Source of the DNA: an uncultured Syntrophales bacterium
GTDB taxonomy: Bacteria; Desulfobacterota; Syntrophia; Syntrophales; JAAYKM01
Assembly (NCBI GenBank): GCA_964541005.1
Contig: CAZIPU010000001.1
Location: forward strand, 4,493 to 36,492
Length of the DNA: 32,000 nt
Reading direction: 5' to 3'
Part shown: piece by piece, positions 4,831 through 20,502 of the stretch
How positions within the stretch are numbered: the stretch's first letter is position 1
How the letters are laid out: each line of letters opens with the position of its first letter
Program-made: the position numbers and the translations under genes
The notes under the pieces: generated by a model
Seen by the model: only the letters and a program-made list of their open reading frames with translations
What the model was told of the DNA's origin: nothing
The model's database searches: none

Positions 4831-5550
4831 ATGGAATACAACCGAGCGGCCGTGGTGATTCCGGTCTACAATCATGAAGAAAAAGTGGCTGAGGTCATTA
4901 GGCAGGCGATGTGCCTCCTTCTGCCCATTTACGTGGTCGACGACGGATCCACCGACGGCACTTACGAACGGATCAAGGGCATCCCGGAAATCACCGTCCT
5001 GCGCCATGAGAAAAACCTGGGAAAGGGCGCTGCACTGATGACGGGATTCGCCGCGGCGGCTCCCACGGCGGAATGGGCCATCACCATCGATGCCGACGGC
5101 CAGCATAATCCGGAAGACAGTTGGAACCTGTTCCAAGCGGTTGAGAAGGGGACACGGCCCATCGTGATCGGCTGCCGGCAGGGTATGGATCATCGGCATG
5201 TTCCGTTTGCAAGCCGTTTCGGGCGGGGATTCTCCAATTTCTGGGTGCGGATGTCCGGCGGACCCGTTCTCACGGACAGCCAAAGCGGTTTCCGTCTCTA
5301 TCCCCTGCCCGAGATACTGTACATGCCCGTCGAGTCTCAGCGTTTTCAGTTCGAGGTGGAAATCCTGGCCCGGGCCGGATGGAAGGGCATGCCGGTTCTG
5401 GAGGCCCCGGTCGGCGTTACTTATGCGCCCAAGCAGGAAAGGGTCTCCCATTACCGGGGTTTTGTCGATTTCTTCCGAAATGCCGCCACTTTCAGCCGTC
5501 TGATCATTCTGAGACGGTTTATCCTGCCTTTCACCCGGTTCAGAAATTGA
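4831..5550 (+). CDS. Family 2 glycosyltransferase (GT-A fold)
   Basis: 239 aa. AVVIPVYNHEEKV, VVDDGSTDGT, ITIDADGQHNPED (DxD). No C-terminal TM domain. The stop overlaps the next start (TGATG). Confidence 0.9.
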   Translation: MEYNRAAVVIPVYNHEEKVAEVIRQAMCLLLPIYVVDDGSTDGTYERIKGIPEITVLRHEKNLGKGAALMTGFAAAAPTAEWAITIDADGQHNPEDSWNLFQAVEKGTRPIVIGCRQGMDHRHVPFASRFGRGFSNFWVRMSGGPVLTDSQSGFRLYPLPEILYMPVESQRFQFEVEILARAGWKGMPVLEAPVGVTYAPKQERVSHYRGFVDFFRNAATFSRLIILRRFILPFTRFRN

Positions 5551-8500
5551 TGAGAGCGCATCCGTATCTTTCCCGGTGGATTCTGGCCGGCGTCATCCTC
5601 ATGATCGTCGCGGGGCTTTTTGCCGCCGGTGTTCATCGCCTCAGATTCGACACCGATGTCCTCAATGCCCTTCCCCAGGATGACCCGGTTCTGGTCGACG
5701 GCCGCTATGTTTTTCTCCATCACCCCATTCAGGACCGCATCGTGGTCGATGTCGGCCAGGCCGGAGGGGATGTGGAACGGCTGGTCGGAGCAGCCGGACT
5801 GATCGAACGGCGCATGCGGGAAAGCGGCCTCTTCCGGAAAGTCGGTCTTGAATCCATGGGCCGCCTTTTCCCGGAACTTCTGCGCCACACGGTGGATCAT
5901 CTTCCCGCTCTTTTCGATTCGGACGAGTTGGAAAGGCTGATTGCGCCCTTGCTGGCTCCGGAAAGGGTCAGGCAGGCCCTTGAGGGCCACATTCAATCCT
6001 TCGGCAATCTGGAAGGAATCGGTCAGGCATCCCTCATCGCCGGCGACCCCCTGGGTTTCCGAAATCTTATCCTGGCCCGTCTGTCCAATCTCGCCCCCGC
6101 GAAAGGGGCAACGATCCATAAAGGTCGGCTCCTCTCTGCGGACAGGAAACATCTTCTCATCCTGGCCGAACCCGTCAGTTCCGGAATGGATACCCGTTTT
6201 GCCCTTAAAATCACGACCTTCATGGAAAAAATCGCCCGGGAAGTCAACGCCGTTTACGGTCCGGAAAGCGGTCTTGTCCTGACGCCCGTCGGAGCATACC
6301 GGGCCGCCCTCGACAACGAAACGAATGCCAAGAAAAACGTCCACCGGGCGGTGACTTTTTCCACCGTGGCCATTGCGTTGCTGCTGCTGGTCTGTTTTCC
6401 CCGGCCCCTGATCGGTCTGCTGGCCCTTCTGCCGGCCTTTGCGGGTACGATGACGGCATTTTTCGTCTATTCCCTTTTCCATGCCACCATTTCCCTCATG
6501 GCGGTCGGCTTCGGCGGGGCGATCATCTCCTTTACCGTCGATTACGGCCTGACCTATCTGCTTTTTCTCGACCGTCCTTATGAGACGCGGGGCATGGACG
6601 CCACGAAAGAAGTCTGGAACCTGGGCCTTCTGGCCATGATGACCACGGCCGTCAGTTTCGCCTTCCTGACCTTTTCAGGATTTCCCGCCCTGGTGGAAAT
6701 CGGCCAGTTTGCCGCCCTGGGGGTGCTGTTTACGTATATCTTCGTCCATCTCGTTTTCCCCCTGGTCTTTCCCGTGATACCGCCGGCAAAAAGGCCGCCT
6801 CTGCTCCCGCTTCAGGCTTTCGTCACCCGCCTGGCCTCTTCCGGATCAATGTGGAAAGTCTATGCGGCCGCCGCTCTGGGGCTGTTCATGCTCTTTTTCG
6901 CCCGCCCGGAGTTTCATATCAACCCGGCGGCGATGAATACCGTAACGCCGGAAACGATGCAGGCGGAACAGCTTGTCCGGAATGTCTGGGGCGATATTTT
7001 CAGCAAGGTCTACCTCCTGGTGGAGGGCGAAAATTCCCGGGATCTGCAGCGGAAATGCGATCGTCTGTCCGTGATGCTGGATCGGGAAGTGAAGGCACGG
7101 CGCCTGTCCCAGGTCTTTGTCCCTTCGATGATTTTCCCCGGGGAGGACCGGGCCCGGACAAATCTTGCCGCCTGGGAACAATTCTGGACCCCTCAGCGGC
7201 GGGACGAATTGAAAAGGACCATCGGGACGGCCGCAGCGCCCCTCGGGTTTTCAACCGCGGCCTTCGATCCATTCTGGAAAAGGCTCGGGGAAAAGCATCC
7301 TGCGGACATCGAGATGCCGGAGCGGTTCTCCGACCTGCTGGGTATCTCTACCAACCGGGATCGCTCCCGCCGGTTCTTCGTCGCCACCCTTACCCCCGGC
7401 CCCGCCTACAATGGAGAGGCTTTTTTCCGGAGTTTTTCCGGGATTGCGGGAACACGGGTGTTTGATCCCGATCTCTTCGGCAAAAGGCTCGGTTCGGTCC
7501 TCATGTCGGCCTTCATCCGCATGGCGGCGATTGTAGGGATTGTCTCCATTTTTGTCGCGTTCATTGTTTTTCTCGACTGGAAGCTGACCCTGATCGGCCT
7601 GCTGCCGACCCTGTTCGCCATGATCTGTACCCTGGGGACCCTGAATCTCATGGGAGAACCCCTGGGAATTCCCGTTGTCATGGTTTCCGTCGTCGTCATC
7701 GGGATGGGAACGGACTACGCCCTGTACATCGCCCGCTCCTTCCAGCGGTATTTCCGGGACGACCATCCCTCCATGGGCCTTGTCCGCACGTCCGTGTTCC
7801 TTTCCTTTGCCACGACTTCTCTCGGATTCGGCGTCCTGGCCCTGTCGGATAACGCCCTGCTGAAAAACGCGGGTCTCGGTCTCGCCCTGGGAATCGGTTA
7901 TTCCTTCCTGGGGGCCGTGATGATTGCACCGCCGCTTCTAAAACGGGTTTTCGTTCCCGTCACCTTACCCGAAGAGAAAGTAGTCCCGGGATCGGAAAGG
8001 CACTTTGCACGGGTTCTTGACCGTTACCGCCATATGGAGGCCTATCCCCGGCTTTTCGCACGTTTCAAAATCCTCATCGATCCCATGTTTCCTCGCCTGG
8101 CGGATTTCCTGCAGTCGCCGAAAACGATCATCGATATCGGAACGGGCTTCGGTATTCCCGCAACATGGCTGCTGGAATTGCACCCTCAAGCCAGGCTCTA
8201 CGGAATCGAACCGAACCGGAAGCGGGTTGAAGTGGCCTCCAGGGTGATCGGGACGCGCGGCGATGTGCAGGTGGGATGCGCCCCTGACATACCCGCAATC
8301 CCGGGACAGGCCGACACGGCGCTCCTGATCGATATGACTCATATGATTGCGGACGACGAATTGCGACTTACCCTGAAGCGGATCCGCGAGAAACTGACAT
8401 CCGACGGGACGGTCATCATCCGGGCAACGGTTCACAGGGAGCACACCTCCCCCTGGAAACGGCGGATCGAAGCAATGAAAAACAGGGCGATGAAATGCCT

Positions 8501-8642
8501 GTCCCGCTTTCGGACGGAAAAAGAGATCTGTGGCATGCTGTCGGTATCCGGTTTTGACGTGATTCAAACGGAGCCGAGCACCCCGGGTCATGAGGAGGTG
8601 TGGTTTGTCGCACGGGTCAGAGAAACAAATAAGGCGGGATAG
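5550..8642 (+). CDS. MMPL/RND-superfamily lipid exporter (APE ApeM-like) fused to a C-terminal class I SAM-dependent methyltransferase
   Basis: Track ORF 5379..8642. I place the start at ATG 5550 (MRAHPYLSRWILAGVILMIV...), in frame and overlapping the GT2 stop. There are two 5-6-helix hydrophobic bundles (about aa 330-480 and 700-860 of the track ORF) with large loops before each. The tail has IIDIGTGFGIPATWLL (motif I GxGxG), LYGIEPN and TALLIDMTH. Confidence 0.8.
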   Translation: MRAHPYLSRWILAGVILMIVAGLFAAGVHRLRFDTDVLNALPQDDPVLVDGRYVFLHHPIQDRIVVDVGQAGGDVERLVGAAGLIERRMRESGLFRKVGLESMGRLFPELLRHTVDHLPALFDSDELERLIAPLLAPERVRQALEGHIQSFGNLEGIGQASLIAGDPLGFRNLILARLSNLAPAKGATIHKGRLLSADRKHLLILAEPVSSGMDTRFALKITTFMEKIAREVNAVYGPESGLVLTPVGAYRAALDNETNAKKNVHRAVTFSTVAIALLLLVCFPRPLIGLLALLPAFAGTMTAFFVYSLFHATISLMAVGFGGAIISFTVDYGLTYLLFLDRPYETRGMDATKEVWNLGLLAMMTTAVSFAFLTFSGFPALVEIGQFAALGVLFTYIFVHLVFPLVFPVIPPAKRPPLLPLQAFVTRLASSGSMWKVYAAAALGLFMLFFARPEFHINPAAMNTVTPETMQAEQLVRNVWGDIFSKVYLLVEGENSRDLQRKCDRLSVMLDREVKARRLSQVFVPSMIFPGEDRARTNLAAWEQFWTPQRRDELKRTIGTAAAPLGFSTAAFDPFWKRLGEKHPADIEMPERFSDLLGISTNRDRSRRFFVATLTPGPAYNGEAFFRSFSGIAGTRVFDPDLFGKRLGSVLMSAFIRMAAIVGIVSIFVAFIVFLDWKLTLIGLLPTLFAMICTLGTLNLMGEPLGIPVVMVSVVVIGMGTDYALYIARSFQRYFRDDHPSMGLVRTSVFLSFATTSLGFGVLALSDNALLKNAGLGLALGIGYSFLGAVMIAPPLLKRVFVPVTLPEEKVVPGSERHFARVLDRYRHMEAYPRLFARFKILIDPMFPRLADFLQSPKTIIDIGTGFGIPATWLLELHPQARLYGIEPNRKRVEVASRVIGTRGDVQVGCAPDIPAIPGQADTALLIDMTHMIADDELRLTLKRIREKLTSDGTVIIRATVHREHTSPWKRRIEAMKNRAMKCLSRFRTEKEICGMLSVSGFDVIQTEPSTPGHEEVWFVARVRETNKAG

Positions 8643-8666
8643 CCGGAGGCATTACAGGGAGCGGGG

Positions 8667-9566
8667 TTGAAAGATCGCTTTTATCGAATTCTAACGGTTC
8701 TGTCGAAAGGAGCAGGCCTGTGGCTGTTTCGCCTCGTTGCCTGGGGGATTGCCTCGGGATATTTTTTCCTGTTCCCTTCCCGTGTTGCCGTCAGTGTCCG
8801 TTTTTACCGGGCCCTTTTCCCGTTCCGGAGCCGGGCCTATCACCTCTTCTGTGCCTGGAAGCAATTTCATCACTTCACCCATGTCTTTCTCGACCGCCTG
8901 CTCTGCGATGAAGACTATCCGCTGAAAATGGTCCAGGACGGTACGGCATATCTCGAACAGGCCATCGGGAACAAAGAAGGAGGGATTCTCCTGATGTCCC
9001 ATCTGGGCAACTGGGAACTGGCCGCCCGGAAGCTCCTGAAACTTTACGGCCGGGTCTGTCCTGACATGAAGCTGCTTCTGTACCTGGGACGGAAGCACAA
9101 GGAGCAGATCGAGGGGAGGCAGAAACAGGACCTGGCCGCTCAGGGAATAGAAATTATCGCCGTGGATCCCCACGGGGCGTCTCCCGTTGATCTGGTGGAG
9201 GGAATTCATTTCCTGAAAAAGGGGGGCCTCGTATCCATGACGGGGGACCGGAGGTGGTGGGAGGATCAGCGTTATGTCCCGGTAAGCTTTCTGGGCTGTG
9301 AAGCCCGTCTCCCCGAGGCGCCTTTTGTCTTATCCCTGCTCTCGGGCAAGCCGATTTATATCTTTTTCGCCCATCGCGTGGCCCGTCACACCCACCGTTT
9401 CCGCATTCTCCCCCCCCTGTACGTCCAGGCCGGAAACAGAAGCGAACGGCAGGACGCTGTCCGACGGGCGGCCCAGATATATGCGGATCACCTGGAAGAG
9501 ATGGTCCGGAAGGCACCCTTCGAGTGGTTCCATTTTGAACCTTTTATCGGCAGGAAGTGGTCATGA
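8667..9566 (+). CDS. LpxL/HtrB-family lysophospholipid/lipid A-type acyltransferase (APE ApeD-like)
   Basis: 299 aa with a TTG start. N-terminal TM segment, MSHLGNWELAARKL (HxxNWE catalytic motif), VSMTGDRRW. Confidence 0.8.
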   Translation: MKDRFYRILTVLSKGAGLWLFRLVAWGIASGYFFLFPSRVAVSVRFYRALFPFRSRAYHLFCAWKQFHHFTHVFLDRLLCDEDYPLKMVQDGTAYLEQAIGNKEGGILLMSHLGNWELAARKLLKLYGRVCPDMKLLLYLGRKHKEQIEGRQKQDLAAQGIEIIAVDPHGASPVDLVEGIHFLKKGGLVSMTGDRRWWEDQRYVPVSFLGCEARLPEAPFVLSLLSGKPIYIFFAHRVARHTHRFRILPPLYVQAGNRSERQDAVRRAAQIYADHLEEMVRKAPFEWFHFEPFIGRKWS

Positions 9567-9600
9567 GCTTCGCCCCGCTTCATGAAATCAAAGAACGGCC

Positions 9601-10005
9601 ATGAAACGACTCGCCAGGCGCATAGCGGCATCCCTGCTCCGCCGGGACGCCATCAGAAAAGCCGTTGCGGAAGGGGGCGATTTTCGTGTATATAGGAACC
9701 GGCCGACTCCCCAGGTAATGGCAGGTTTATTCCTTATTCTATGTAGTTACGTAATCGGATGGCCTGTCATCATCGTTTTGGGATGGATTGCCAATCAGGT
9801 CAAGGAACCCTTGTGGATCGTTGTCGGTGGCCCGCTGATGTACGGTTTGTCCAACCTGATGTTTAACATCGGCGCGTACATCGCCGGTCGCAAGTATGTG
9901 ACGGCCCTGATGAAATGGCTGATCAAGGTCACATTTGAAAAAATCCTCGGACCGGAGAATCTGCTCCCTCACGGTCACGAAGAACGGAATATTAATCGGT
10001 CCTGA
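9601..10005 (+). CDS. Small integral membrane protein, function unknown
   Basis: 134 aa. Two clear hydrophobic helices (VMAGLFLILCSYVIGWPVIIVLGWI; LWIVVGGPLMYGLSNLMFNIGAYIAG). Codon usage matches its neighbours. No motif recognised. Confidence 0.6.
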   Translation: MKRLARRIAASLLRRDAIRKAVAEGGDFRVYRNRPTPQVMAGLFLILCSYVIGWPVIIVLGWIANQVKEPLWIVVGGPLMYGLSNLMFNIGAYIAGRKYVTALMKWLIKVTFEKILGPENLLPHGHEERNINRS

Positions 10006-10076
10006 AAAGACACGCCTCGGACGCCAGGGGGTGAGACGGTCTTTCTTGGGCGTGCATATCAGGCAGAAGGAATGTC

Positions 10077-10343
10077 ATGGATGAATTAATAGAAGAACTG
10101 AAAATCAAAATCATCAATACCCTGAACCTTATCGATGTCAAACCTGAAGACATTGATATCCAGGCCCAGCTCGTCGGAGGTGACCTCGGCCTGGATTCCA
10201 TCGACGTTTTGGAACTGGTCATGATGCTTGAAGAGGACTACGGCGTGATCATCGATACCAAGGAACTGGGCATGGAGGTGTTCGCCTCCCTGGGGGCGCT
10301 GGCGGAACACGTCCATCATCACCGGTCGGAGAAAGGTGATTGA
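10077..10343 (+). CDS. Acyl carrier protein (ACP-2)
   Basis: 88 aa, LGLDSIDVLELVMMLEEDYG (DSxD/helix II). GAAGGA Shine-Dalgarno about 6 nt upstream. The stop overlaps the KS start. Confidence 0.9.
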   Translation: MDELIEELKIKIINTLNLIDVKPEDIDIQAQLVGGDLGLDSIDVLELVMMLEEDYGVIIDTKELGMEVFASLGALAEHVHHHRSEKGD

Positions 10344-12517
10344 GCGGCCCGCGTATTTTCATCACATCGATGGGGATTGTCAGCCCTTTCGGTGAAGGGA
10401 TCGGGAAAAATCTTTCGACCCTGAAAGACGCCGTCTCGGCCCTTGCCCCTCTCCGGCTGTTTTCCGCCTCCCATGACCCCTTGCCGGTCGGAGAAATCCC
10501 CTCAATCAGCGTTCCGGGAGACCTGCCCCGCACCCATGTCCTGGCCATGATGGCGGCCGAAGAGGCCATGAAAGGGATCAGCGGTCCGCCCGATGCCGTC
10601 ATCATCGGAACCACCACGGGAGGGATGACCGCAACCGAGGAATATCTCAAACAGGGGGAAAAGGAACCCTCTCTGTATCGTAATCATTCGGCAGGGTCGG
10701 TGACGGAGGCGATTGCCGCCCGCTTCGGTTGCCGGGGACCGGTGCTGACGGTTTCGACCGCCTGTTCATCGGGAACGGTGGCGGTCAAGATCGCTCTGGA
10801 ACTGCTCCGTTCGGGGAAGGCCCTGCGGGTTCTGGCCGGAGGGGCGGACGCCCTGTGCCGGCTCACCTACTACGGATTTCATTCCCTCCAACTCGTCGAT
10901 CCGGGAGGAGCGCATCCCTTTGATTCGGGAAGGAAAGGCATGTCCGTGGCGGAGGGGGCGGCCATGTTCCTCCTGACGGCAGCCGATACCCCGCCTGAGG
11001 GGGCCGTCGCGGAACTTCTCGGCGGCGCCCTGACCTGCGACGCCTATCACCCGGCAGCGCCTCATCCCTCCGGAGAAGGGGCAAGGAGAGCCATGGAAGA
11101 CGCCCTTGCCGATGCCGGCGTTGCCCGGGAGGAAATCGATTACATTCATCTGCACGGAACAGGGACCCCGGAAAACGATCTCGCCGAAGGGCGGGCTGTT
11201 AGCGCCCTCTTCGGCGGCCGGCCCATGCCTCCCCTGTCGTCCCTGAAGGGCGCCTGGGGACATTCCCTCGCCGCAGCAGGGGCGATGGGAACCGTCGTGT
11301 CCGCCCTGGCCGTTCACAAGGGTTTTATTCCTCCCAATGTGGGGATTCGCAGCCCCGATCCGGAAACCGCTCTGGCACCCGTAACCGCTTATCAGGCAGG
11401 CGATGTCAGGCAGGTCCTGGTCAATTCATTCGGTTTCGGCGGCAATAACGCCGTTCTGGTTCTGGGCCGGCCCGGCAATGGGAAACGGGCGATTCCGGTC
11501 CGGAAAAACGATGAATCCATCCCGTTTTTTGTCCACGGCCGGTCCTGCCTGACCGGGGCGGGCGATACGGACAGCACCCTCGACCTGTTAAGCAGGGGAA
11601 AAGAACTGAAGGGAATGGTCCCGTCCCCGGACCTGATGAAGCATCTCTCGGGCAAGGCCGTACGTCGTCTGAAACGCCTGTCACGGATGGTGCTTTCTCT
11701 CGGAGTCTCCGCCTGTGCGGGAAAACAAAAAGACGATTTGCCGAGGGCGATCTTTTTCGGTACCCGCTGGGGAGCGCTTTCCGAAACCCATGATTTCCTG
11801 GCCAAGCTCTTCGAGATGGATGAACGTTTTACCAGTCCCACCGATTTTATCGGATCGGTCCATAACGCACCGGCGGGACAGGCGGCGATCCACTTCCAGG
11901 CCCCGGGTCCGAATGTCACCATTGCCGGCGGCAACGGATCGTTCGAGCAGGCCCTCTTCTCCGCCGGTCTTGTGTGCCGCGAGGAATCGCTCCTTCTTGT
12001 CGGGGCCGATGAATACAACGAACATCTGTCTCCCCTGTTCGATCCGGAGGCGTCGTCGGAGGAAAGGCCCACGGACGGCGGCGGTGCGCTTTACCTGAAG
12101 CGGGAAAAAGGGGGGGCGACCAGCCGGGTGGCCCCGGTCTTTACGGGTTTTTCCGGCAGCGACGAATCGGTCATCAGGGAACTGATCATGAAACTGGGAG
12201 GGCGTGTCCGCATCCGGGAACGATTCGGCCTGATCCTGGCAGGCATGCCCGCGTCATTTCGAGACCAGGGAAGGCGCCAGGGGGATGCTTTTCTTGCCGA
12301 AACGGCTTATCCGCATCCCTTTATCGATTATCGACGGTTTGTCGGCGAATGCGCCTCGGCCTCCGCCGTGGCGACGGTTCTCGCGGTTCTTTTCGTCGAG
12401 CAGGGAACGGCGCCGGGAGGGATCTGTGGCGGCACACCGGCCGATCTCAACGGGCGGGGCATTCTCGTGCTCGGCTTCGGCCGTCACGTGACAGCCCTGG
12501 AGGTGATGCCATGCTGA
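10340..12517 (+). CDS. Fused ketosynthase + chain-length-factor-like domain (KS-CLF didomain)
   Basis: 725 aa with a TTG start overlapping the ACP-2 stop. N-half motifs: IFITSMGIVSPFG, TVSTACSSGT (Cys), HLHGTGTPEND (His), GAWGHSLAAAG (His), NSFGFGGNNAVLVL. The C-half (about 320 aa) is thiolase-like but has TIAGGNGSFEQAL where the active Cys should be, plus TSPTDFIGSVHNAPAGQ, resembling ApeC-type CLFs. Confidence 0.8.
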   Translation: MSGPRIFITSMGIVSPFGEGIGKNLSTLKDAVSALAPLRLFSASHDPLPVGEIPSISVPGDLPRTHVLAMMAAEEAMKGISGPPDAVIIGTTTGGMTATEEYLKQGEKEPSLYRNHSAGSVTEAIAARFGCRGPVLTVSTACSSGTVAVKIALELLRSGKALRVLAGGADALCRLTYYGFHSLQLVDPGGAHPFDSGRKGMSVAEGAAMFLLTAADTPPEGAVAELLGGALTCDAYHPAAPHPSGEGARRAMEDALADAGVAREEIDYIHLHGTGTPENDLAEGRAVSALFGGRPMPPLSSLKGAWGHSLAAAGAMGTVVSALAVHKGFIPPNVGIRSPDPETALAPVTAYQAGDVRQVLVNSFGFGGNNAVLVLGRPGNGKRAIPVRKNDESIPFFVHGRSCLTGAGDTDSTLDLLSRGKELKGMVPSPDLMKHLSGKAVRRLKRLSRMVLSLGVSACAGKQKDDLPRAIFFGTRWGALSETHDFLAKLFEMDERFTSPTDFIGSVHNAPAGQAAIHFQAPGPNVTIAGGNGSFEQALFSAGLVCREESLLLVGADEYNEHLSPLFDPEASSEERPTDGGGALYLKREKGGATSRVAPVFTGFSGSDESVIRELIMKLGGRVRIRERFGLILAGMPASFRDQGRRQGDAFLAETAYPHPFIDYRRFVGECASASAVATVLAVLFVEQGTAPGGICGGTPADLNGRGILVLGFGRHVTALEVMPC

Positions 12518-13992
12518 AGCAAATCCGCGAGCCCGGCAGGATACTGATTATCGGCTCCGGTGCCGGCGGCCTGACGGCGGGAATTATCCTGGCTAAACTG
12601 GGCTATCCTGTGACGATCGCGGAAAAAAACATCCAGGCGGGCGGGTTGATGCACAATTATCGCCGCCGGGGCTTCGATTGTCCCGTTGGGGTGCATTACC
12701 TGGGATCCCTGGATTCCGGTCAGCCCCTCCGGCGATTATGGGATTATCTGGGCGTAACGGAAAAGATTCCCCTGGAACGCATGGGAACGTCAGGCCCCAT
12801 CGATCGCTATGTCTTTGACGATTTTCATTTCGATTTACCCGAGGGGGTGCCGGCTTTTGAAGAAAACCTGATGCAGGCCTTCCCGGAAGAGCACAAGCAG
12901 ATTGCGTCGGTTATGGCAGAGCTTACGGAGGTCAGTGGCAGCTTTGCGCGCCTCGACATGCTTTTGTCTCCGGAAGGGGTACCCGTTTCCGTGGAGAGTT
13001 TTTCTCCCATGGGGGAACATCTTGACCGCCTGGGTTGTTCGGAACGTCTGAAAAGCGTCCTGGGTGTTCCTTCCATGCTTATCGGGCTGTCCCTTCAGGA
13101 ATGTCCCCTTTTTTACTATTACCTGACCCTCTCCTCTTACCTTCTGTCATCCTGGCGGCTGAGGGACAACAGTTCCCGCATGGCGGAGGCATTTGCCGGT
13201 CGGTTCCGTGCATTGGGAGGACAACTGGTACTTGGAGACGGCGTCAAACGCATTCTTGCCGAATCGGGCAGGATAAGGGGCGTGCGGCTTCAATCCGGCC
13301 GCGAGATCGATGCGGATACCATTATTGCCGCCGTTCATCCCCAGGCCGTCACGGCCATGCTGCCCGAAGGCGTGCTGCGGCCTGACCAGGCGGAACGGAT
13401 CGCTCGGCTCGAAAACACCAAGGGTCTGTTTGTCGTAACGCTGTCCGTTGCAGACAGTGTTAATGAAGCTCTTCCCTATAATATTTACCGGCTCCACCCC
13501 GAAGCGGATGGCTCCCTTGCAAAGGGATCGTTTCACCAGATACGAAAGGGCAATCAAGCCGGGACGAATCTCCTGACCATGATGGCCACCAGCAGCATCA
13601 AGGAATGGCAGCCTTGGGAACAGACCGTGTCGGGCCGGCGTGGGGGCGACTATAAATGCGAAAAGAGAAACAGAGCGGAGGCGTTCATCACCGAAGCGAC
13701 GGCACTTTTCGGCCCCCTGAAAGGAAAGGGAATCGTTGATATTTATACCCCCCTGACGATCCGGGATTGGGTCGGAAGCCCCGGCGGATCGGCCTACGGG
13801 ATCAGGCGTTCGTCGTCACAGCTGATGAGGACGGCTTTTCTGAACCGGCCGGCCGTCAAGGGGCTTTTTTTTGCGGGACAGAATATTCTCGCCCCCGGAA
13901 TCATGGGAACGACCCTGGGGTCATTCCAGGTCATCAAACGGATTATCGGCCAGGAACATTTCGGTCGAACAGTACTGGAGGGGCTGCGTTGA
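12511..13992 (+). CDS. FAD-dependent oxidoreductase of the phytoene desaturase (CrtI/CrtD-like) family
   Basis: Track ORF 12349..13992. I place the start at ATG 12511 (MLKQIREPGRILIIGSGAGGLTAGIILAKLGYPVTIAEKN, a GxGxxG dinucleotide fold ending in E). C-terminal GLFFAGQNILAPGIMGTTLGS is typical of this family. ATGCTGA overlaps the KS-CLF stop. Confidence 0.8.
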   Translation: MLKQIREPGRILIIGSGAGGLTAGIILAKLGYPVTIAEKNIQAGGLMHNYRRRGFDCPVGVHYLGSLDSGQPLRRLWDYLGVTEKIPLERMGTSGPIDRYVFDDFHFDLPEGVPAFEENLMQAFPEEHKQIASVMAELTEVSGSFARLDMLLSPEGVPVSVESFSPMGEHLDRLGCSERLKSVLGVPSMLIGLSLQECPLFYYYLTLSSYLLSSWRLRDNSSRMAEAFAGRFRALGGQLVLGDGVKRILAESGRIRGVRLQSGREIDADTIIAAVHPQAVTAMLPEGVLRPDQAERIARLENTKGLFVVTLSVADSVNEALPYNIYRLHPEADGSLAKGSFHQIRKGNQAGTNLLTMMATSSIKEWQPWEQTVSGRRGGDYKCEKRNRAEAFITEATALFGPLKGKGIVDIYTPLTIRDWVGSPGGSAYGIRRSSSQLMRTAFLNRPAVKGLFFAGQNILAPGIMGTTLGSFQVIKRIIGQEHFGRTVLEGLR

Positions 13993-15338
13993 TCATATTG
14001 CTGATTTCCACCAATACCATGACGGATCCCTATCCGACTTATCCCATCGGTCTGGACTATGTCGCCCATGCCATTCCCCCCCACCACAAAGTCGTGATGG
14101 TCGACCTGAACGACCCGGGAGAGAATAAAACACTCGCAGGGATCCTTACTGAAGAGCACCCCGACCTTATTGGCCTGTCGATCCGGAATATCGACAATAC
14201 GGAAGCCGTGAATGTGAAAAGCTTCTCCGAAGGCATGTGCGATCTGATACGCCTCATTCGACGCCATACCAGGGCAAAGATCGTTCTTGGGGGAAGCGGG
14301 TTCACAATCCTGCCCGGTGAATGGATGCGCCTTCTTGACGCGGATTATGGCGTCATCGGGGAAGGGGAACGCCTGCCCCTTTTGCTGGATGCCCTGGAAA
14401 GAAACGAGACGACTTCCGGTCTGCCGGGCATCATGACGAAAGAGGATCCCGTGATTTTCCCGGAACCCTGGACGGGCACATTCCATCGCGGGCCTTTTTT
14501 CTCCCGGGCCTATACGTCTTTTTACCTGAAAAAGGGGGGCATGCTCAACCTGCAGACCAAACGGGGTTGCCCCTTCAAATGTATCTATTGTACTTACCCT
14601 CATATCGAGGGGAAAACGTTCCGTTTTGTACCTCCCGATGAAGCGGCTGAAACAGCGCGGATGCTCCAGGACGCCGGCGCGCGCTACCTCTACATGACCG
14701 ATTCGACCTTCAACGGAAATTACGAGCATAGCCTGGCCGTTGCCGAAGCTTTCAAGAAAGCGGGCGTTTCCATCCCCTGGGGGGGCTTCTTCACCCCGAC
14801 CCGACCCCCTGCCGATTATTACCGTATCCTTGCGGAGGCGGGACTCCGGCATGTGGAATTCGGAACGGAGGCCCTGAATAATCCCATGCTGGCGGCATAC
14901 CGGAAACCGTTCAATCTCGAAGATGTCCGGATGGCCCATCGCTTTGCTCTGGAGGCGGGTCTTCATATCGCCCATTACCTCATGCTGGGCGGCCCCGGAG
15001 AAAGCGAGGCCACCCTTCAGGAAACACTTGAAAATTCTAATGATCTGGTGAAGGCTGTCTACTTCATGTTCAGCGGAATACGGATCTATCCGCACACGGA
15101 CCTGTACGACCTGGCCTTGCGGGAGGAACAGATCCAACCGGGCACGAATTTACTGAAGCCCACGTTTTACTGGTCCCCGGGCCTAAACCGACGGAGAGCC
15201 ATGACGCTGATCACGAATCATGCGGAGGGACGAAGCAACTGGCTTGTCGGCTCCGGGGCGGAAAAAACATCCAGGATTCTTTCACGGCTTTACGCCCGGG
15301 GTCACGTGGGCCCCCTTTGGGAGCACATGATCCGATGA
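13989..15338 (+). CDS. B12-binding-domain radical SAM enzyme (lipid-cluster type)
   Basis: Track ORF 13767..15338. I place the start at TTG 13989 (TTGA overlap with the desaturase stop), giving (M)IILLISTNTMTDPYPTYPIGLDYVAHAI. Further motifs: IVLGGSGFT and LNLQTKRGCPFKCIYCTYP (CxxxCxxC, about nt 14568-14591). Confidence 0.85.
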   Translation: MIILLISTNTMTDPYPTYPIGLDYVAHAIPPHHKVVMVDLNDPGENKTLAGILTEEHPDLIGLSIRNIDNTEAVNVKSFSEGMCDLIRLIRRHTRAKIVLGGSGFTILPGEWMRLLDADYGVIGEGERLPLLLDALERNETTSGLPGIMTKEDPVIFPEPWTGTFHRGPFFSRAYTSFYLKKGGMLNLQTKRGCPFKCIYCTYPHIEGKTFRFVPPDEAAETARMLQDAGARYLYMTDSTFNGNYEHSLAVAEAFKKAGVSIPWGGFFTPTRPPADYYRILAEAGLRHVEFGTEALNNPMLAAYRKPFNLEDVRMAHRFALEAGLHIAHYLMLGGPGESEATLQETLENSNDLVKAVYFMFSGIRIYPHTDLYDLALREEQIQPGTNLLKPTFYWSPGLNRRRAMTLITNHAEGRSNWLVGSGAEKTSRILSRLYARGHVGPLWEHMIR

Positions 15339-16159
15339 CCGGCCCGGAAACGGAAGGAGGGGGACTGTCCCCCGCCGGCATATCCGGTTTGATCGCCCTT
15401 TCCCTGGCATCGCTGCTGGCGGTCTTTCATCCGCCGTCGGCGGTCATCCCCCTGGCGTCTTACGTTCTGATCTGCCTGGGAGCACCGTTTTTCCCGACCG
15501 TCGGTTTCTTTCTGCCCGTTTACAGCCGGGGACGCACCGGAAGATCCGTGGTTGCGATTACTTTCGATGACGGACCGGATCCGGAAACCACCCCTTTACT
15601 TCTGGAACTTCTTTGCCGATACCATGTAAAGGCAACCTTCTTCGTTACGGGAACGAGGGTGAAAGCGCATGGCGATCTCATTTCGGCCATCCTCGGGGAA
15701 GGCCACGATATCGGGAATCATTCCTTCAGTCATGATGTTTTCCTGATGTTCCGGACGATGAAGCGTCTTGCCGGGGAGGTGGCGATGACCCAGAGAAGCC
15801 TGCGGGGTTTCGGGTTCGTTCCCCTGGCCTTCAGGCCCCCGGTGGGAATTACAAACCCGAAGCTCGGACCTGTTTTACGCCGGCAAGGTCTTTTCTGCGT
15901 CAATTTTTCCTGCCGGGCTTACGACGGCGGCAACCGGTTCGTCCGGGGGATGGCCGGCCGAATTCTGAAGAAAGTCAGGTCCGATGACATCATTGTATTG
16001 CATGATGTGCCACCGGGGAATGGGGTAACCGTACAGATCTGGCTTGAAGAAGTGGCATCCGTCCTTTCCGGGTTGGAAAAGAGGGGCCTGAGCGTTATTC
16101 CCCTGGCGGAACTCCTCGGGAGACCGATCATCGTCAGGGCAACGGGTGTTGGTCAATGA
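15335..16159 (+). CDS. Membrane-anchored polysaccharide deacetylase (NodB homology domain, CE4)
   Basis: ATG 15335 overlaps the radical SAM stop (ATGA). Two N-terminal TM helices, then VAITFDDGPDPETT (TFDDG) and GHDIGNHSFSHD (H-S-x-x-H). Confidence 0.85.
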   Translation: MTGPETEGGGLSPAGISGLIALSLASLLAVFHPPSAVIPLASYVLICLGAPFFPTVGFFLPVYSRGRTGRSVVAITFDDGPDPETTPLLLELLCRYHVKATFFVTGTRVKAHGDLISAILGEGHDIGNHSFSHDVFLMFRTMKRLAGEVAMTQRSLRGFGFVPLAFRPPVGITNPKLGPVLRRQGLFCVNFSCRAYDGGNRFVRGMAGRILKKVRSDDIIVLHDVPPGNGVTVQIWLEEVASVLSGLEKRGLSVIPLAELLGRPIIVRATGVGQ

Positions 16160-16229
16160 TCTTCGGAAGTTATAATGAGCAAAAAACTGTTGATACAGGG
16201 GGGGATCAATGGTATTTGGTTCCGGTTAA

Positions 16230-16670
16230 ATGGGCGCTCCTAAACAAGGATATTCTGCTTTGTGCGCCATGGATATGATGGAACAATGGCATCGCATATA
16301 TCATGAAACCGATCCGTCGGGTTCCGGAGTGATGATCAGGGCCTTGGCGCAAAGCGGATCCCCCTGGTTTTCCGGTCATTTCCCCGGAGAGCCGATTCTG
16401 CCGGGCATTGCCATCCTGTCCATGGTTAAGGAGGCCGTCCTGGCGGAGGAATCCCGCAAGGGAAGGCGTATTCGGATTCATGGAATCAACAGGGTTCGCT
16501 TCCGTCTGCCCGTCCGACCGGATGACCTGCTGACCCTGGCGTTTTCCATGTCCGGACAGGAAGGGAAGCCCGTTTATTCATTCAAGGTATCCCTGGACGG
16601 GAAAACGGTGTGCAACGGGATGATCGCCGCCGGGCTTCTGCCGGAGACGCTTCCGGCTTCCGATGGCTGA
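16230..16670 (+). CDS. FabZ/FabA-like hot-dog 3-hydroxyacyl-ACP dehydratase (APE ApeI/ApeP-like)
   Basis: 146 aa. WFSGHFPGEPILPGIAILSMVKEA is the FabZ catalytic His motif. The start is uncertain (ATG 16230 or ATG about 16270), and neither has a clear Shine-Dalgarno. Confidence 0.75.
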   Translation: MGAPKQGYSALCAMDMMEQWHRIYHETDPSGSGVMIRALAQSGSPWFSGHFPGEPILPGIAILSMVKEAVLAEESRKGRRIRIHGINRVRFRLPVRPDDLLTLAFSMSGQEGKPVYSFKVSLDGKTVCNGMIAAGLLPETLPASDG

Positions 16671-16755
16671 AAGGTGGAATAAAAGGACTTGAATGACCGG
16701 AAGGTCTTTTATAGATTCAAAGTGCAGTCATTTTAACGAGGAGGAATGGATACCC

Positions 16756-17016
16756 GTGAGTGCGGAAAACAAGGCCCTGATCATTCGCGTCGCCGAGATC
16801 GTCATTACCGAATTGAAGTTGCAGGACATTACGCCCGATACATTTGATCCCGATCTCGATCTTGTGGATGAACTGGGGGTGGACAGCATGGATCTGGCTA
16901 CGGTGGTCCTGGTTCTGCAGGACGAATATGGGATCACCATCGACGAGGACGACTATCCGAAATTGAGAAACATCCGCCTGATCGCAGAATATGTCGAACA
17001 GAAGCAGCGGGCGTAA
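16756..17016 (+). CDS. Acyl carrier protein (ACP-3)
   Basis: Track ORF 16693..17016. LVDELGVDSMDLATVVLVLQDEYG. I favour GTG 16756 (GAGGAGGA about 10 nt upstream), giving an 86-aa ACP. ATG 16693 is possible. Confidence 0.8.
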   Translation: MSAENKALIIRVAEIVITELKLQDITPDTFDPDLDLVDELGVDSMDLATVVLVLQDEYGITIDEDDYPKLRNIRLIAEYVEQKQRA

Positions 17017-18127
17017 TGATAAAACATTCGTGAGTACGACAGACGCCATAACCCTCCCAGGCGAGGAGAACGGGAAAAGAAAATGGAAGTTTTCAGAACT
17101 TCTGGCCGATCCGGAGGTGTCTTCACGATGGGAGAAGGTGCGTAAGTATTTCTTTCTCCGGGAATCGACGTATGACATGACGAATCGCTGCAACATTCGC
17201 TGCGACGGCTGTTATTACTATGAAGGGGAAAAACAGTTTGCCGTCGACAGCCGTGATCCCGAAGCGTGGCGCAAACTGATGCAGGACGAGAAATTCAGGG
17301 GGATCACCTATGTCGTTCTGGCCGGCGCGGAGCCTTCCCTGGTTCCGGAACTGCTTGAGGTCTGCTTCCGGGAAATGCCTCTGGGCAGCATCGCCACCAA
17401 CGGTTACGTCCGGATTCCCGAGAGCGTAGGTTACCGGATCCATATTTCCGTCTGGGGTAATGATGAAACGAGTGCCCGCGTCCGGGGTGCCAAAAACCTC
17501 CTGAAACGGCAGATCGAGAATTACGCCGGCGATTCCCGGGCCGTTTTTGTCTACACCTTCACCCGGGATAACATTGACGAAGTTTACGAGGTCATGGAAA
17601 CGATCGCTTCCCGGGATTGCCGGATGACCTTCAACATGTTTTCCTCCCCCGTAGGCTATACGGGAGGCCTTCGGCACGATACGGCATCGCTGCTCCGGGC
17701 CAGGCAAACGATGATGGATATCCTGACAAGGTACCCGGAGAACATCCTGTTTTCGCCTTATAACGTGGTGGCCCATACGGAGCCATATGGTCTCCATACC
17801 CTCTATGGGTGTTCTTACCCGAGGATGAACGGTTCCACCGATATCGGCCTGGGCCGATCCTTCCGCCAGTACCGGTCGGATCTTTCCTGGGATCGAAGCG
17901 TGGCCTGCTGCGTACCCGATACGGACTGCGAAGACTGCCGGCACTATGCTTCCGGCAGTGCCGTGGTGACGGCCCGCCTCTACCGCCATGTGACCGATCC
18001 GGAAACATTCCGTTCCTGGCTGGACTATGTGGATACCTATCTGGCCGTCTGGGTAATGGGTTACGATAAGGGAGAAAACCTCTGCCGTACATTGATCGAA
18101 CCGCCCGGGAAACCGGACTCAATTTGA
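16991..18127 (+). CDS. Radical SAM enzyme, no B12 domain, C-terminal Cys-rich motif (paralog A)
   Basis: 378 aa. STYDMTNRCNIRCDGCYYY (CxxxCxxC, about nt 17189-17212), VVLAGAEPSL, C-terminal VACCVPDTDCEDCRHY. The start could be ATG 16991 (overlapping ACP-3) or GTG 17030. Confidence 0.85.
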   Translation: MSNRSSGRNDKTFVSTTDAITLPGEENGKRKWKFSELLADPEVSSRWEKVRKYFFLRESTYDMTNRCNIRCDGCYYYEGEKQFAVDSRDPEAWRKLMQDEKFRGITYVVLAGAEPSLVPELLEVCFREMPLGSIATNGYVRIPESVGYRIHISVWGNDETSARVRGAKNLLKRQIENYAGDSRAVFVYTFTRDNIDEVYEVMETIASRDCRMTFNMFSSPVGYTGGLRHDTASLLRARQTMMDILTRYPENILFSPYNVVAHTEPYGLHTLYGCSYPRMNGSTDIGLGRSFRQYRSDLSWDRSVACCVPDTDCEDCRHYASGSAVVTARLYRHVTDPETFRSWLDYVDTYLAVWVMGYDKGENLCRTLIEPPGKPDSI

Positions 18128-18185: not shown

Positions 18186-19184
18186 ATGAAAACGGTCAGT
18201 TCCTTACTTGATGAAGCCTGGCATGAGCGCTACCGGAAAATCGCCAGCCTGAATATCCGCAGTTCCATCTACGATGTGACCAACCGCTGTAACCTGCGCT
18301 GCAAGGGGTGTTTCTTCTTTTCCTCCAATGAGCACGAAGCCGCTCAGGAGGAGATGGATATAAACAAGTGGTATGACTTTATCGGCCGGGAGAAGGCGCG
18401 GGGAGTCAACCTGGCCATCCTGATCGGCGGTGAACCGACCCTGTACCTGGACCGGGTTGAAGCCTTTTATCGGCAGCTTCCCACGTACTGCGCCACCAAC
18501 GGGCAGATCAAAATCCCCCGCGACCGCTTCCCTGACATGATGGTGGGCATCTCCCTGTGGGGGGACGAGGAAGACGAGAAAACCCTCCGGGGGAAAGACA
18601 CGTTCGCCGTTTCCCGGCGACATTACGAAGGTGACCCCCACACCTACTATCTTTACACGATCACGGCAAAACAGGTCGGACGCATCGAATCGGTCGTCCG
18701 TAAAATAGCCGATGCGGGTCTTAAGGTCCATTTCCAGCTTCTGACGAACGATGAACAGGTGGACGGATTCTCCTGGAGCGAGGACAAGCTGCGCGACATT
18801 CGAAGTGAAATGGATGAAATGCTTGACCGCTATCCCCGGACGGTTGTTTCCTGCCGGTATTATCACGAAATCATCACCACGGGGAAAATGATGGGACGGC
18901 CTTTCGGCTGGAACGAGTGCCCCTCCGTGACGGAACAACTGGATACGCGGAATCCGCAACCCAAAAGACTCATCCGGTTCATCCGCTGGGCTTCCGATCT
19001 GAAGACCATGCACCGGTGCTGCACCTCCGAAACCCGGGACTGTTCGACCTGCAAGGACGGGGCGGCCCACATGAGCTGGGTCATGGTCAACAAGAGGGAT
19101 CATCTGCGTTCGACCCAAGACATCCAGAACTGGATCGAAGTCTACGAAATGTTTGCCAAACTGTACCGTTTTATCCCCTGGTAG
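18186..19184 (+). CDS. Radical SAM enzyme, no B12 domain, C-terminal Cys-rich motif (paralog B)
   Basis: 332 aa. SIYDVTNRCNLRCKGCFFF (about nt 18288-18311), ILIGGEPTL, C-terminal HRCCTSETRDCSTCKDG. Alignable by eye with the preceding gene along its length. Confidence 0.85.
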   Translation: MKTVSSLLDEAWHERYRKIASLNIRSSIYDVTNRCNLRCKGCFFFSSNEHEAAQEEMDINKWYDFIGREKARGVNLAILIGGEPTLYLDRVEAFYRQLPTYCATNGQIKIPRDRFPDMMVGISLWGDEEDEKTLRGKDTFAVSRRHYEGDPHTYYLYTITAKQVGRIESVVRKIADAGLKVHFQLLTNDEQVDGFSWSEDKLRDIRSEMDEMLDRYPRTVVSCRYYHEIITTGKMMGRPFGWNECPSVTEQLDTRNPQPKRLIRFIRWASDLKTMHRCCTSETRDCSTCKDGAAHMSWVMVNKRDHLRSTQDIQNWIEVYEMFAKLYRFIPW

Positions 19185-19193
19185 CCTCCCCTC

Positions 19194-20468
19194 ATGAGCG
19201 CTGCGGCAAGGATGGGAACGGGGCGAAAAAGGCCTGTCATACTCGGCTACGATGCCGTATCTCCCCTGGGGTTGGATCTGGCAGAGCAGTGGGAACGTGC
19301 ATCGAGGGGCGAAAGCGGAATAGGCCCCCTGACCCGTTTTCCCCTCCGGGACGGATTCCCGGTGAGAATCGCCGGGGAGGTGAAGGAGATCGACACGGGA
19401 GCCTATCCCTTTTTAGCCGCCCGGGATATGGTGCAGTGGACGTCGCCTCTGTTTAAGTACGCCATGCTGGTGGTTAACCGGGCCCTGGCGAAAAGCGGGA
19501 TCGAGATTACCCCCGCCATATCGCCCCGGGTGGCCATTACCTTCAGTTCCGCCATCGGCGGCCTTGACGCGGTTTTGAAGGCGGACCGGCTTCTTGTTTC
19601 CGGAGGGAAACTGCCCCATCCCTTCACCAATCCGAATTCCTGCATCAACATGGTGGGGGGAAAGGTATCGATCATGACCGGGGCGACGGGACCGATTACG
19701 TCAACCATCACCGCCTGCGCCACGGGGAGCACTTCCATGATCATGGGGGGGCTTCTGATCGACCAGGGGATGGCCGATGTCGTCATTTGCGGCGCCGTGG
19801 ATTTCCCCCTCGTCGAGCCCATCGTGGGAGGATTCGCCACGATGAACGGGGCCTACCGGCCGAAAGAAGGCCAGCCGGAGGAAGCGCCGGAAAGGGCCAG
19901 CCGGCCCTTTTCGCAGAACAGGCGCGGGTTTGTGGTCTCCGAGGGAGCAGGGTGTGTCATCATTGCCGGACGTGATTTCGCCGCGTCCCATGGTTTACAG
20001 TTTGACCTGGAAATGGCAGGATGGGCCATGACCTCCGACGCCCATCATTTTGTGGCGCCGAATCTCCAGACGGTTAGGCGCTGCATCTCCGAAAGTCTTG
20101 CCGACGCGGGTCTTCAGGTGTCGGAGATCAATGCGATCAACGCCCACGGCACGTCGACCAAAATCGGCGACAAAATCGAATGGGAGGCCCTGCGTGATGT
20201 TTTTGGCAGCCGCATTCCTCCCGTATCGGCCAACAAGTCCCAGACGGGGCATGCCATGGGGGCTTCTTCCGCCATTGAGTTAATTCTGGCCATGGAAGGA
20301 ATGAAGCGGGAGAGAGTTCTGCCGACGATCAATTACCGGCCGGACCCGGAGATACCCCTCGACTGCGTTCCCGAAGGGGCGCGGAAGCTGGAGCAGGAAT
20401 ACGTTCTGAAAAACGCGTTCGGATTTGGCGGCTGCAACGCCTGCCTGGTGTTGCGCAGGACCGGTTGA
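19194..20468 (+). CDS. Beta-ketoacyl-ACP synthase, KAS I/II type (KS-2)
   Basis: 424 aa. ITACATGSTSMIMG (Cys), INAHGTSTKIGD (His), NKSQTGHAMGASSAIE (Lys/His), NAFGFGGCNACLVL. Confidence 0.9.
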   Translation: MSAAARMGTGRKRPVILGYDAVSPLGLDLAEQWERASRGESGIGPLTRFPLRDGFPVRIAGEVKEIDTGAYPFLAARDMVQWTSPLFKYAMLVVNRALAKSGIEITPAISPRVAITFSSAIGGLDAVLKADRLLVSGGKLPHPFTNPNSCINMVGGKVSIMTGATGPITSTITACATGSTSMIMGGLLIDQGMADVVICGAVDFPLVEPIVGGFATMNGAYRPKEGQPEEAPERASRPFSQNRRGFVVSEGAGCVIIAGRDFAASHGLQFDLEMAGWAMTSDAHHFVAPNLQTVRRCISESLADAGLQVSEINAINAHGTSTKIGDKIEWEALRDVFGSRIPPVSANKSQTGHAMGASSAIELILAMEGMKRERVLPTINYRPDPEIPLDCVPEGARKLEQEYVLKNAFGFGGCNACLVLRRTG

Positions 20469-20502
20469 CCCATCATCGGAAAAGGGATCATACAATCGAA
20501 CT

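Follow-up and report, generated by a model that had tools for sequence, protein, structure and literature searches.

What does a B12-binding radical S-adenosylmethionine (SAM) enzyme do in a lipid operon, when the gene before it codes for a relative of the carotenoid desaturases? The question is raised by a stretch of 32,000 nucleotides from an uncultured Syntrophales bacterium (contig CAZIPU010000001.1), here called the window. In it, a gene for a flavin adenine dinucleotide (FAD)-dependent oxidoreductase (PDH-like, CrtI/amine-oxidase fold, 493 aa, 12511..13992, plus strand) lies between a fused ketosynthase (KS) and chain-length factor (CLF) gene (KS-CLF, 725 aa, 10340..12517, plus strand) and the gene of the radical SAM enzyme (B12-rSAM, 449 aa, TTG start, 13989..15338, plus strand), which is in turn followed by a polysaccharide deacetylase gene. 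We have found that the window is a further member of a catalogued, biochemically uncharacterised cluster type. It counts as already known because membership of the radical SAM protein in its family, TIGR04072, is assigned automatically in NCBI annotation and because published descriptions of the cluster type go back to 2009. The assignment of this protein to its family and context is close to certain, and the physical and translational linkage of its gene to KS-CLF and to an upstream acyl carrier protein (ACP) gene, ACP1, is shown below.

The first-pass annotation of this DNA, made from the letters alone, had taken the 449-aa product for a B12-binding radical SAM enzyme and had named a curated profile family for lipid biosynthesis to which it might belong. 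Both ideas proved right. The Pfam domains B12-binding (PF02310, residues 14-128) and Radical_SAM (PF04055, residues 191-348) were found, and the CxxxCxxC motif (C194, C198, C201) is invariant among the relatives. The family so named exists as TIGR04072, lipid biosynthesis B12-binding/radical SAM protein, with the short name rSAM_ladder_B12, and its curated cutoff of 360 bits was exceeded (392.3 bits) over positions 2-443 of the 443 of the model, so that by profile the protein is a bona fide cobalamin/radical SAM enzyme of this family. The next models were BzaD (128 bits, cutoff 450), a TsrM-type Trp methylase (106 bits), AprD4 (77 bits), HpnJ (72.2 against 578), HpnR (54.4 against 650) and BchE (35.3 against 481), and all six stayed far under their cutoffs. 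An affinity to BchE or another cofactor enzyme, which had been named as the finding that would overturn the idea, did not appear (BchE, 35 bits against 481). Ten diverse relatives (30-56% identity) scored above the TIGR04072 cutoff without exception (10/10), and several homologs already carry the family name in their annotation. The lipid-biosynthesis neighbourhood expected of the family (ACP, ketosynthases, dehydratase) is present in the window and kept in the related loci L003-L086. Besides, natural fusions join TIGR04072 proteins to an N-terminal SPASM radical SAM protein (P0250, its N-terminus 47% identical to Kuenenia stuttgartiensis kuste3343), to an N-terminal LpxL-type acyltransferase (P0246) and to a C-terminal 4HBT thioesterase (P0269), partners that are of the same protein types as found in the window.

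The AlphaFold2 model of the radical SAM enzyme (predicted local distance difference test, pLDDT, 89.2) had its best PDB match in TsrM (6wte/6wtf, template modelling (TM) score 0.87-0.88), followed further down by AprD4, MgmA, OxsB, CysS and TokK. In the sequence alignment R66, invariant in the family, falls on TsrM Arg69, and T240 falls on TsrM Glu273, a column at which the family has V or T. In TsrM, Arg69 sits below the cobalt and Glu273 keeps SAM off the unique iron, making the enzyme non-radical (PMC8992657). With Glu273 replaced by T240, a SAM-ligated and radical-competent cluster would therefore be possible. The simplest reading of these alignments is that cobalamin would be bound in the manner of TsrM over a normal SAM-ligated cluster, a pattern compatible with radical methylation although not a demonstration of it. 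What the protein shares with TsrM and other cobalamin-dependent methylases (BzaD, PhpK, MgmA, CysS, TokK) is the fold and the CxxxCxxC motif, and its R66 aligns with the TsrM Arg under the cobalt. It differs from TsrM by an identity of only ~20%, by Thr in place of Glu and by a context suggesting that its substrate is an acyl-ACP, not an amino acid or an antibiotic.

Three stop/start overlaps had been pointed out around the two genes, and reading the sequence directly placed them exactly at the positions claimed. The KS-CLF stop (TGA, 12515-12517) and the flavoenzyme start (ATG, 12511) share the 7 nt ATGCTGA; the flavoenzyme stop (TGA, 13990-13992) and the B12-rSAM start (TTG, 13989) share TTGA; and the B12-rSAM stop (TGA, 15336-15338) and the deacetylase start (ATG, 15335) share ATGA. 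The flavoenzyme and B12-rSAM starts are preceded, at a distance of 5-8 nt, by purine-rich sequences for ribosome binding, namely a GGAGGTGA Shine-Dalgarno at 12499-12506 and GGAGGGG at 13977-13983. Both start calls, including the unusual TTG, are credible because independent metagenome gene calls agree with them: P0001 (449 aa) is 100% identical to the radical SAM protein and P0391 (493 aa) 99% identical to the flavoenzyme. Many homologs of the former are likewise 449 aa long, with the start codon at the same aligned position in every related locus. The flavoenzyme/B12-rSAM junction reads NTGA in all nine loci with the flavoenzyme upstream, over starts that vary (TTG in four, GTG in three, ATG in two). 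The overlaps are real and conserved.

A further overlap of 4 nt joins the ACP1 stop to the KS-CLF start, so that the coupled run comprises five genes (ACP1, KS-CLF, FAD enzyme, B12-rSAM, deacetylase) and not four. The lipid genes of the window form a single long array on the plus strand, with overlaps at 8 of 27 junctions, hence the overlaps mark a tight operon and nothing peculiar to the three junctions. They show co-transcription and make translational coupling probable. The stoichiometric co-expression that had been read from them goes too far, as an overlap does not prove stoichiometry. A search for promoters and terminators over 9500-17100 was uninformative, its counts being no higher than in shuffled controls.

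We have compared the locus with the best 80 of at least 560 loci in GTDB species genomes (49-71% identity of the radical SAM protein), counting neighbours over flanks of 6 kb; anammox and other distant members lie outside this sample. The hosts are Syntrophales/Smithella, Desulfobacterales, Desulfobulbales, Desulfatiglandales, Syntrophobacteraceae and five metagenome-assembled genomes (MAGs) of Spirochaetota. The closest homologs of both the radical SAM protein and the flavoenzyme are in uncultured Syntrophales/Syntrophaceae MAGs, and among the long relatives the best is L003, a metagenome contig from ENA whose proteins are 82-94% identical and whose genes have the order and the overlaps of the window. 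Across the ~80 species-level loci the conserved core is ACP1, KS-CLF (not always), B12-rSAM, deacetylase (not always), dehydratase, ACP2, rSAM2, rSAM3, KSa, KSb and thioesterase, with ACP1 upstream of the B12-rSAM block in most of them. In 37 loci KS-CLF immediately precedes the radical SAM gene, and in 27 of these the KS-CLF stop and the radical SAM start share 4 nt.

The flavoenzyme behaves otherwise. Its gene was found in 7 of the 80 loci and was missing within 6 kb in the remaining 73. It lies between KS-CLF or ACP1 and the radical SAM gene in four of them, as also in L003 and L004, and downstream of the radical SAM gene in three. All the 13 flavoenzyme homologs sampled adjoin a TIGR04072 gene, and in two distant cases (51-54% identity, from a Spirochaetota MAG and a JGI contig) the flavoenzyme is the first gene of the operon. 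In a rough neighbour-joining tree, calculated without support values and used only to compare these two arrangements, radical SAM proteins with the PDH-like gene upstream and those with it downstream fell in different groups. Since the radical SAM gene is usually coupled straight to KS-CLF and the flavoenzyme is rare, the latter looks inserted into a pre-existing KS-CLF/radical SAM junction. The general rule shown by these loci is that the radical SAM gene is co-transcribed with, and its start overlaps, the preceding gene, which is usually KS-CLF and here the inserted FAD enzyme. The flavoenzyme is a lineage-specific, dedicated but optional partner of the radical SAM enzyme, and the conserved unit of the family is not this pair of genes.

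The five Spirochaetota MAGs of the sample (L021, L036, L048, L074, L085) carry the same cluster with radical SAM proteins 50-54% identical to that of the window, which suggests transfer between phyla. The PDH-like gene is present among them in L085 only.

How far the flavoenzyme deserves to be called CrtI-like depends on the level considered. At the level of fold and superfamily the name stands: the AlphaFold2 model (pLDDT 88.9) matched best the carotenoid desaturase 4rep (TM-score 0.74, 17% identity), followed in Foldseek by the uncharacterised Methanosarcina oxidoreductase 3ka7, CrtI 4dgk (E = 7e-20) and amine oxidases, and Pfam gave Amino_oxidase (58.7 bits) and NAD_binding_8 (47.8 bits). 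At the level of the CrtI family it does not, as crtI_fam (TIGR02734) reached 63.0 bits against a cutoff of 238.1, CrtD 91.2 against 549.7 and the carotenoid isomerase model 51 bits, with 14-17% identity to the solved carotenoid desaturases. By profile and model, the protein is a CrtI-fold flavoenzyme outside the CrtI family. It has in common with CrtI and CrtD the fold and the FAD-binding motifs at both termini, and it differs from them by its under-cutoff scores, by this low identity and by a neighbourhood without carotenoid genes. A loss of the FAD-binding residues, which would have spoken against a flavoenzyme altogether, was not seen: the GxGxGG motif, E38 and the following GG, together with the C-terminal GQ...G...GT, are intact and invariant among 35 homologs (G15, G17, G19, G20, E38, G44, G45, G456, Q457, G463, G466). 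Kuenenia PDH homologs have been assayed, and neither kuste3336 nor kuste3607 complemented crtI in E. coli (PMC4790861).

The question of which known cluster the window belongs to leads to the anammox bacteria. Rattray and co-workers described candidate ladderane clusters in K. stuttgartiensis and their synteny with Desulfotalea psychrophila, Geobacter and Pelobacter (Rattray 2009; PMC2649909), and genome-mining tools call this cluster type "ladderane" in many non-anammox phyla (PMC9902471). For the comparison with Kuenenia we have used the first ~128 codons of the candidate genes, as given in the supplementary table of Javidpour 2016 (PMC4790861). Over these N-terminal 128 aa kuste3342 is 40% identical to the radical SAM protein of the window (E = 5e-26), and the TIGR04072 cutoff is exceeded by a representative sharing 59% identity with the kuste3342 N-terminus. 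Over the same ~128 aa, other window proteins also have their counterparts: rSAM3 in kuste3343 (34%), the PDH-like protein in kuste3336 (28%), ACP1 in kuste3340 (42%), the glycosyltransferase GT2 in kuste3335 (41%) and the deacetylase in kuste3351 (48%). By these matches, the window contains the kuste3335-3352 / DP1853-1855 cluster in its Syntrophales form. Kuste3342 and D. psychrophila DP1853 (Rattray 2009) have the same domain order as the radical SAM protein of the window, and the kuste3335-3352 type includes, as here, ACP, KS, hot-dog dehydratase, more radical SAM proteins, GT2, deacetylase, a PDH-like protein and an exporter. There are also differences. In Kuenenia the PDH gene kuste3336 is six genes away from kuste3342, whereas in the window the PDH-like gene stands between KS-CLF and B12-rSAM and overlaps both; and, unlike in the Kuenenia cluster, KS and CLF are fused in the window, and so are exporter and methyltransferase. 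The K. stuttgartiensis equivalents of the latter two appear to be separate, kuste3337 being a membrane protein and kuste3338 a methylase.

A second anammox cluster also resembles the window. Cluster I (kuste3603-3608: amxACP, amxFabZ, amxFabF2, amxFabFmut, PDH, B12-rSAM) has the same protein types in nearly the same order, and it is said to be exclusive to anammox bacteria and has been the focus of recent structural work (PMC10139942; bioRxiv 10.64898/2026.05.19.726425). We took it from two anammox loci (L001, L002), found by means of the PDB sequence of amxFabF2. The block of the window is not its Syntrophales version: the radical SAM protein and the PDH-like protein are only 23% and 20% identical to the L001 proteins, the Cluster I radical SAM protein gave 87.9 bits on TIGR04072, and amxFabZ matches the window dehydratase less well than ordinary FabZ does, so the two clusters are not orthologous. 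Kuste2803 was also considered as a seed of TIGR04072 and discarded, its N-terminus resembling kuste3608 and having no match to the window protein; kuste2803 and kuste3608 form a separate paralog pair. The anammox-specific FabZ (L001 9536-9991) scored 98.6 bits, under a cutoff of 140, on the model of AmcE, a cispentacin cyclising decarboxylase, which may bear on ideas of ring formation for Cluster I.

The KS-CLF protein carries the Pfam domains ketoacyl-synt, Ketoacyl-synt_C and Ketoacyl-synt_2. The best match of its active ketosynthase half in the whole PDB is 9s5h_B (198.6 bits), which we recognised as the anammox amxFabF2 because it is 97% identical to Brocadia-type proteins; the next is Iga11, the KS of ishigamide. 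The chain-length-factor-like half had its best PDB matches in ApeC (6qsp_B), amxFabFmut (9s5h_C) and Iga12. The gene is a true KS-CLF fusion, as had been supposed. In anammox bacteria amxFabF2 and amxFabFmut have recently been shown to form a heterodimer, the counterpart of which in the window is a single fused polypeptide.

The remaining likeness is to the aryl-polyene clusters. With these the window shares an ApeI-like dehydratase, ApeO/ApeC-like KS/CLF (PRK09185, Ketoacyl-synt_2) and PRK09184-type ACPs, and also a PRK09116-type KS, LpxL- and PlsC-type acyltransferases, GT2, an MMPL-like exporter and a 4HBT thioesterase. It departs from them in having three radical SAM genes, a NodB-type deacetylase and the PDH-like gene in place of an aryl starter. 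No domain of the aryl-starter genes (ammonia lyase, aryl-AMP ligase) was found in any window open reading frame (ORF) scanned. The cluster type, which we call "ladderane-type" or aryl-polyene-like, is common to Desulfobacterota, some Spirochaetota and anammox bacteria (kuste3335-3352, DP1853/1855).

On balance we favour a reading of the block as the core for chain tailoring in a specialised lipid pathway of type II that depends on ACPs, in which the radical SAM enzyme would methylate a chain bound to ACP1, the flavoenzyme would act as its partner and the product would then be exported. KS-CLF and ACP1 would initiate and lengthen a dedicated chain, an enoyl or polyenoyl thioester of short or medium length. 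On the ACP1-bound chain the B12-dependent enzyme would carry out a radical C-H functionalisation, most likely a cobalamin-mediated C-methylation. In this lineage the flavoenzyme would alter the C=C bonds of the same intermediate (by desaturation, isomerisation or saturation) right before or after the radical SAM step. The chain would be carried onward on ACP2 by rSAM2, rSAM3, KSa/KSb and the dehydratase; and the thioesterase, the acyltransferases, GT2, the deacetylase and the exporter of RND type would join it to an anchor, either a deacetylated amino sugar or a lipid, and export the product. The parts of this scheme do not carry the same weight. An ACP-bound acyl chain is probably the substrate of the radical SAM enzyme. 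Methylation is favoured among the reactions because the nearest characterised relatives (TsrM, BzaD, PhpK, MgmA, CysS, TokK) are all methylases, and we put forward the name methylase only tentatively.

Several points weigh against this scheme. The methylase call comes from distant relatives with ~20% identity, and the same fold includes the dehydratase AprD4, the ring-contracting OxsB and the cyclase BchE. For clusters of this type outside anammox bacteria, no product is known (PMC9902471). No member of TIGR04072 is known to have been characterised biochemically; our literature searches for the family name returned no paper, and those for a cobalamin radical SAM enzyme working with a KS-CLF found none either. 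Neither a ketoreductase nor an enoyl reductase was found in the window, and the nature of the chain is for this reason a guess. The anchor and export steps are drawn only from weak family matches under curated cutoffs and should be taken as suggestions. Finally, the direction of the flavoenzyme reaction is not readable from the sequence, and some homologs have been named retinol saturase by JGI.

The last point leads to the most serious of the other explanations, that the flavoenzyme is a saturase or isomerase which replaces the missing enoyl reductase on an enoyl or polyenoyl intermediate modified by the radical SAM enzyme. Several homologs are labelled all-trans-retinol 13,14-reductase by JGI, the CrtI superfamily includes isomerases and saturases (and the carotenoid isomerase model gave its 51 bits), the P. 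acnes fatty-acid isomerase 2b9w is among the fold matches, no enoyl reductase or FabI gene was found in the window and the PDH homologs of K. stuttgartiensis failed to take the place of CrtI (PMC4790861). The top profile and fold matches are nevertheless desaturases (CrtD, 91 bits; 4rep, TM-score 0.74). As all the scores of the flavoenzyme are far under cutoff, neither direction is established. We hold this explanation unlikely, though worth keeping in mind. Less probable is an obligate module of the PDH-like and TIGR04072 proteins, one that would couple O2-independent desaturation to radical C-C bond formation on an ACP-bound chain (a mid-chain methyl branch, a cyclopropane or another ring) and give a new class of envelope lipid. 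The idea comes from the fact that every PDH homolog sampled adjoins the radical SAM gene, most with a 4-nt overlap. If it were true, the product would be an undescribed envelope lipid, found widely among anaerobic Desulfobacterota and Spirochaetota and with a relation to anammox chemistry.

The first-pass annotation had proposed that the pair tailors a lipid chain by methyl branching, cyclisation or tail-to-tail coupling. Methyl branching is still plausible; for the other two we have found no specific support. In a ladderane-style sequence of desaturation and then cyclisation, the flavoenzyme would make a polyunsaturated chain on which the B12-dependent enzyme forges rings (cyclobutane, cyclopropane or other). 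The family model is after all named rSAM_ladder_B12, the homolog kuste3342 belongs to a candidate ladderane cluster of K. stuttgartiensis, cyclisation by PDH and radical SAM enzymes has been proposed in the literature (PMC2649909, PMC13459092) and ring chemistry by class B enzymes exists (BchE, OxsB). However, the cluster is common in Desulfobacterota and Spirochaetota (at least 560 loci) while ladderanes are described as strictly anammox (PMC9902471), D. psychrophila has the syntenic cluster without ladderanes (PMC2649909), 73 of the 80 loci lack the flavoenzyme, the radical SAM protein of the anammox-specific Cluster I is of another family (87.9 bits, 23% identity) and BchE gave only 35 bits on the protein of the window. 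We regard such a sequence as quite improbable. Still more so is an intermolecular, tail-to-tail C-C coupling in the manner of Tes/MSS, leading to membrane-spanning or dimeric lipids. It could draw on the presence of three radical SAM genes in one lipid cluster and on a weak match of rSAM3 to the Tes model (28.8 bits), but this match is limited to the cluster-binding core and far under the cutoff of 450, the B12-dependent enzyme has no Tes match at all, and the dedicated ACPs, the KS-CLF and the thioesterase suggest carrier-bound chains rather than assembled membrane lipids. Tes and Jaw5, listed beforehand among the class B examples, are not known to be cobalamin enzymes and belong to other radical SAM classes. 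There is hardly any probability left for a radical SAM enzyme of cofactor or porphyrin metabolism (BzaD- or BchE-like) placed in a lipid operon by chance. BzaD does rank second among the models (128 bits, with as much as 239 bits in relatives), yet all its scores are under the cutoff of 450, and the lipid context is kept across ~80 loci with overlapping frames and natural fusions to lipid enzymes.

Relative to the papers searched, some of these observations appear to be new. The curated "ladder" radical SAM family maps to kuste3342 and not to the Cluster I enzyme kuste3608; the PDH-like gene is optional and yet always stands beside the radical SAM gene when present; and the KS/CLF fusion found here and the Rosetta-stone fusions of TIGR04072 appear not to have been reported. 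The counterpart of rSAM_ladder_B12 is hence kuste3342, and not the kuste3608 of the structurally studied Cluster I, and the constant partners of the enzyme are ACP, KS-CLF and two highly conserved radical SAM proteins. We know of no enzyme of the radical SAM or PDH class in ladderane-type clusters with an assigned reaction, their biochemistry having been open since 2009, nor, to our knowledge, does a genetic system exist for anammox bacteria. The family is common in Desulfobacterota, some of them culturable, and its function could therefore be tested outside anammox.

The other genes of the array, all on the plus strand, complete the picture of a lipid pathway. ACP1 (10077..10343), a dedicated carrier protein, is of the PRK09184 type (phosphopantetheine-binding, 66.8 bits, NCBIfam). 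The deacetylase (15335..16159, 274 aa) is probably a membrane-anchored enzyme of NodB/CE4 type (Pfam Polysacc_deac_1, 89 bits; NCBIfam NodB, 89 bits, and PdaB, 92.6 bits, both under cutoff), its translation showing the TFDDGP and HSFSH motifs and a hydrophobic N-terminus, and its gene is found 3' of the radical SAM gene in many loci. The FabZ/ApeI-like hot-dog dehydratase (16230..16670; Pfam FabA, 40.1 bits, ApeI-like, 31.5 bits; PDB matches FabZ, 44 bits, and ApeI 6qsr, 37 bits) is kept downstream of the radical SAM gene. ACP2 (16693..17016), a second dedicated carrier recognised by NCBIfam ACP models, has 50-92% identity across loci. It is followed by rSAM2 (16991..18127) and rSAM3 (18186..19184), both with the Pfam Radical_SAM domain and a Cys-rich C-terminus; for neither did any NCBIfam family exceed 35 bits. 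No other genes in the cluster are as well conserved (rSAM2 62-83% and rSAM3 mostly 72-92% identity across loci and orders). KSa, KSb and the 4HBT thioesterase (19194..22248) form the conserved 3' end of the core, the ketosynthases matching FabF-type models under cutoff and the thioesterase a YbgC/FadM-family model above it (78.9 bits, cutoff 68.7). Two further carrier-protein-like ORFs were seen, one at 22347-22682 with a clear PP-binding domain (39.5 bits) and one at 3755-4033 with 20.3 bits, just under the Pfam threshold of 20.8, so that the window may encode up to four ACPs.

Upstream, the assembly and export genes (4831..10005, plus strand; NCBIfam and Pfam) code for the GT2 glycosyltransferase, an RND/MMPL-like exporter with a fused C-terminal methyltransferase, an LpxL-type acyltransferase and a small membrane protein, an order repeated in L003. 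In the exporter ORF (5547-8642, listed from 5379) the SAM-methyltransferase domain is at residues ~900-1065 of 1087. After the PlsC gene, a 510-aa ORF (24776-26308) has a weak PS-DH-like N-terminus and a phosphopantetheinyl transferase (ACPS) C-terminus. In the related loci L004 (20891 to the end) and L086 (16637-18139) a second and longer B12-binding radical SAM gene (500-522 aa) lies directly 3' of the PlsC-type acyltransferase. Just upstream of the lipid array, on the minus strand, a GNAT acetyltransferase is fused to a beta-keto acid cleavage enzyme (BKACE) domain (1159-2529), and at the far end of the array the gene of a BtrH_N/DUF4872 protein (29649-31399) shares 4 nt with the start of the one for an ABC-transporter ATPase.

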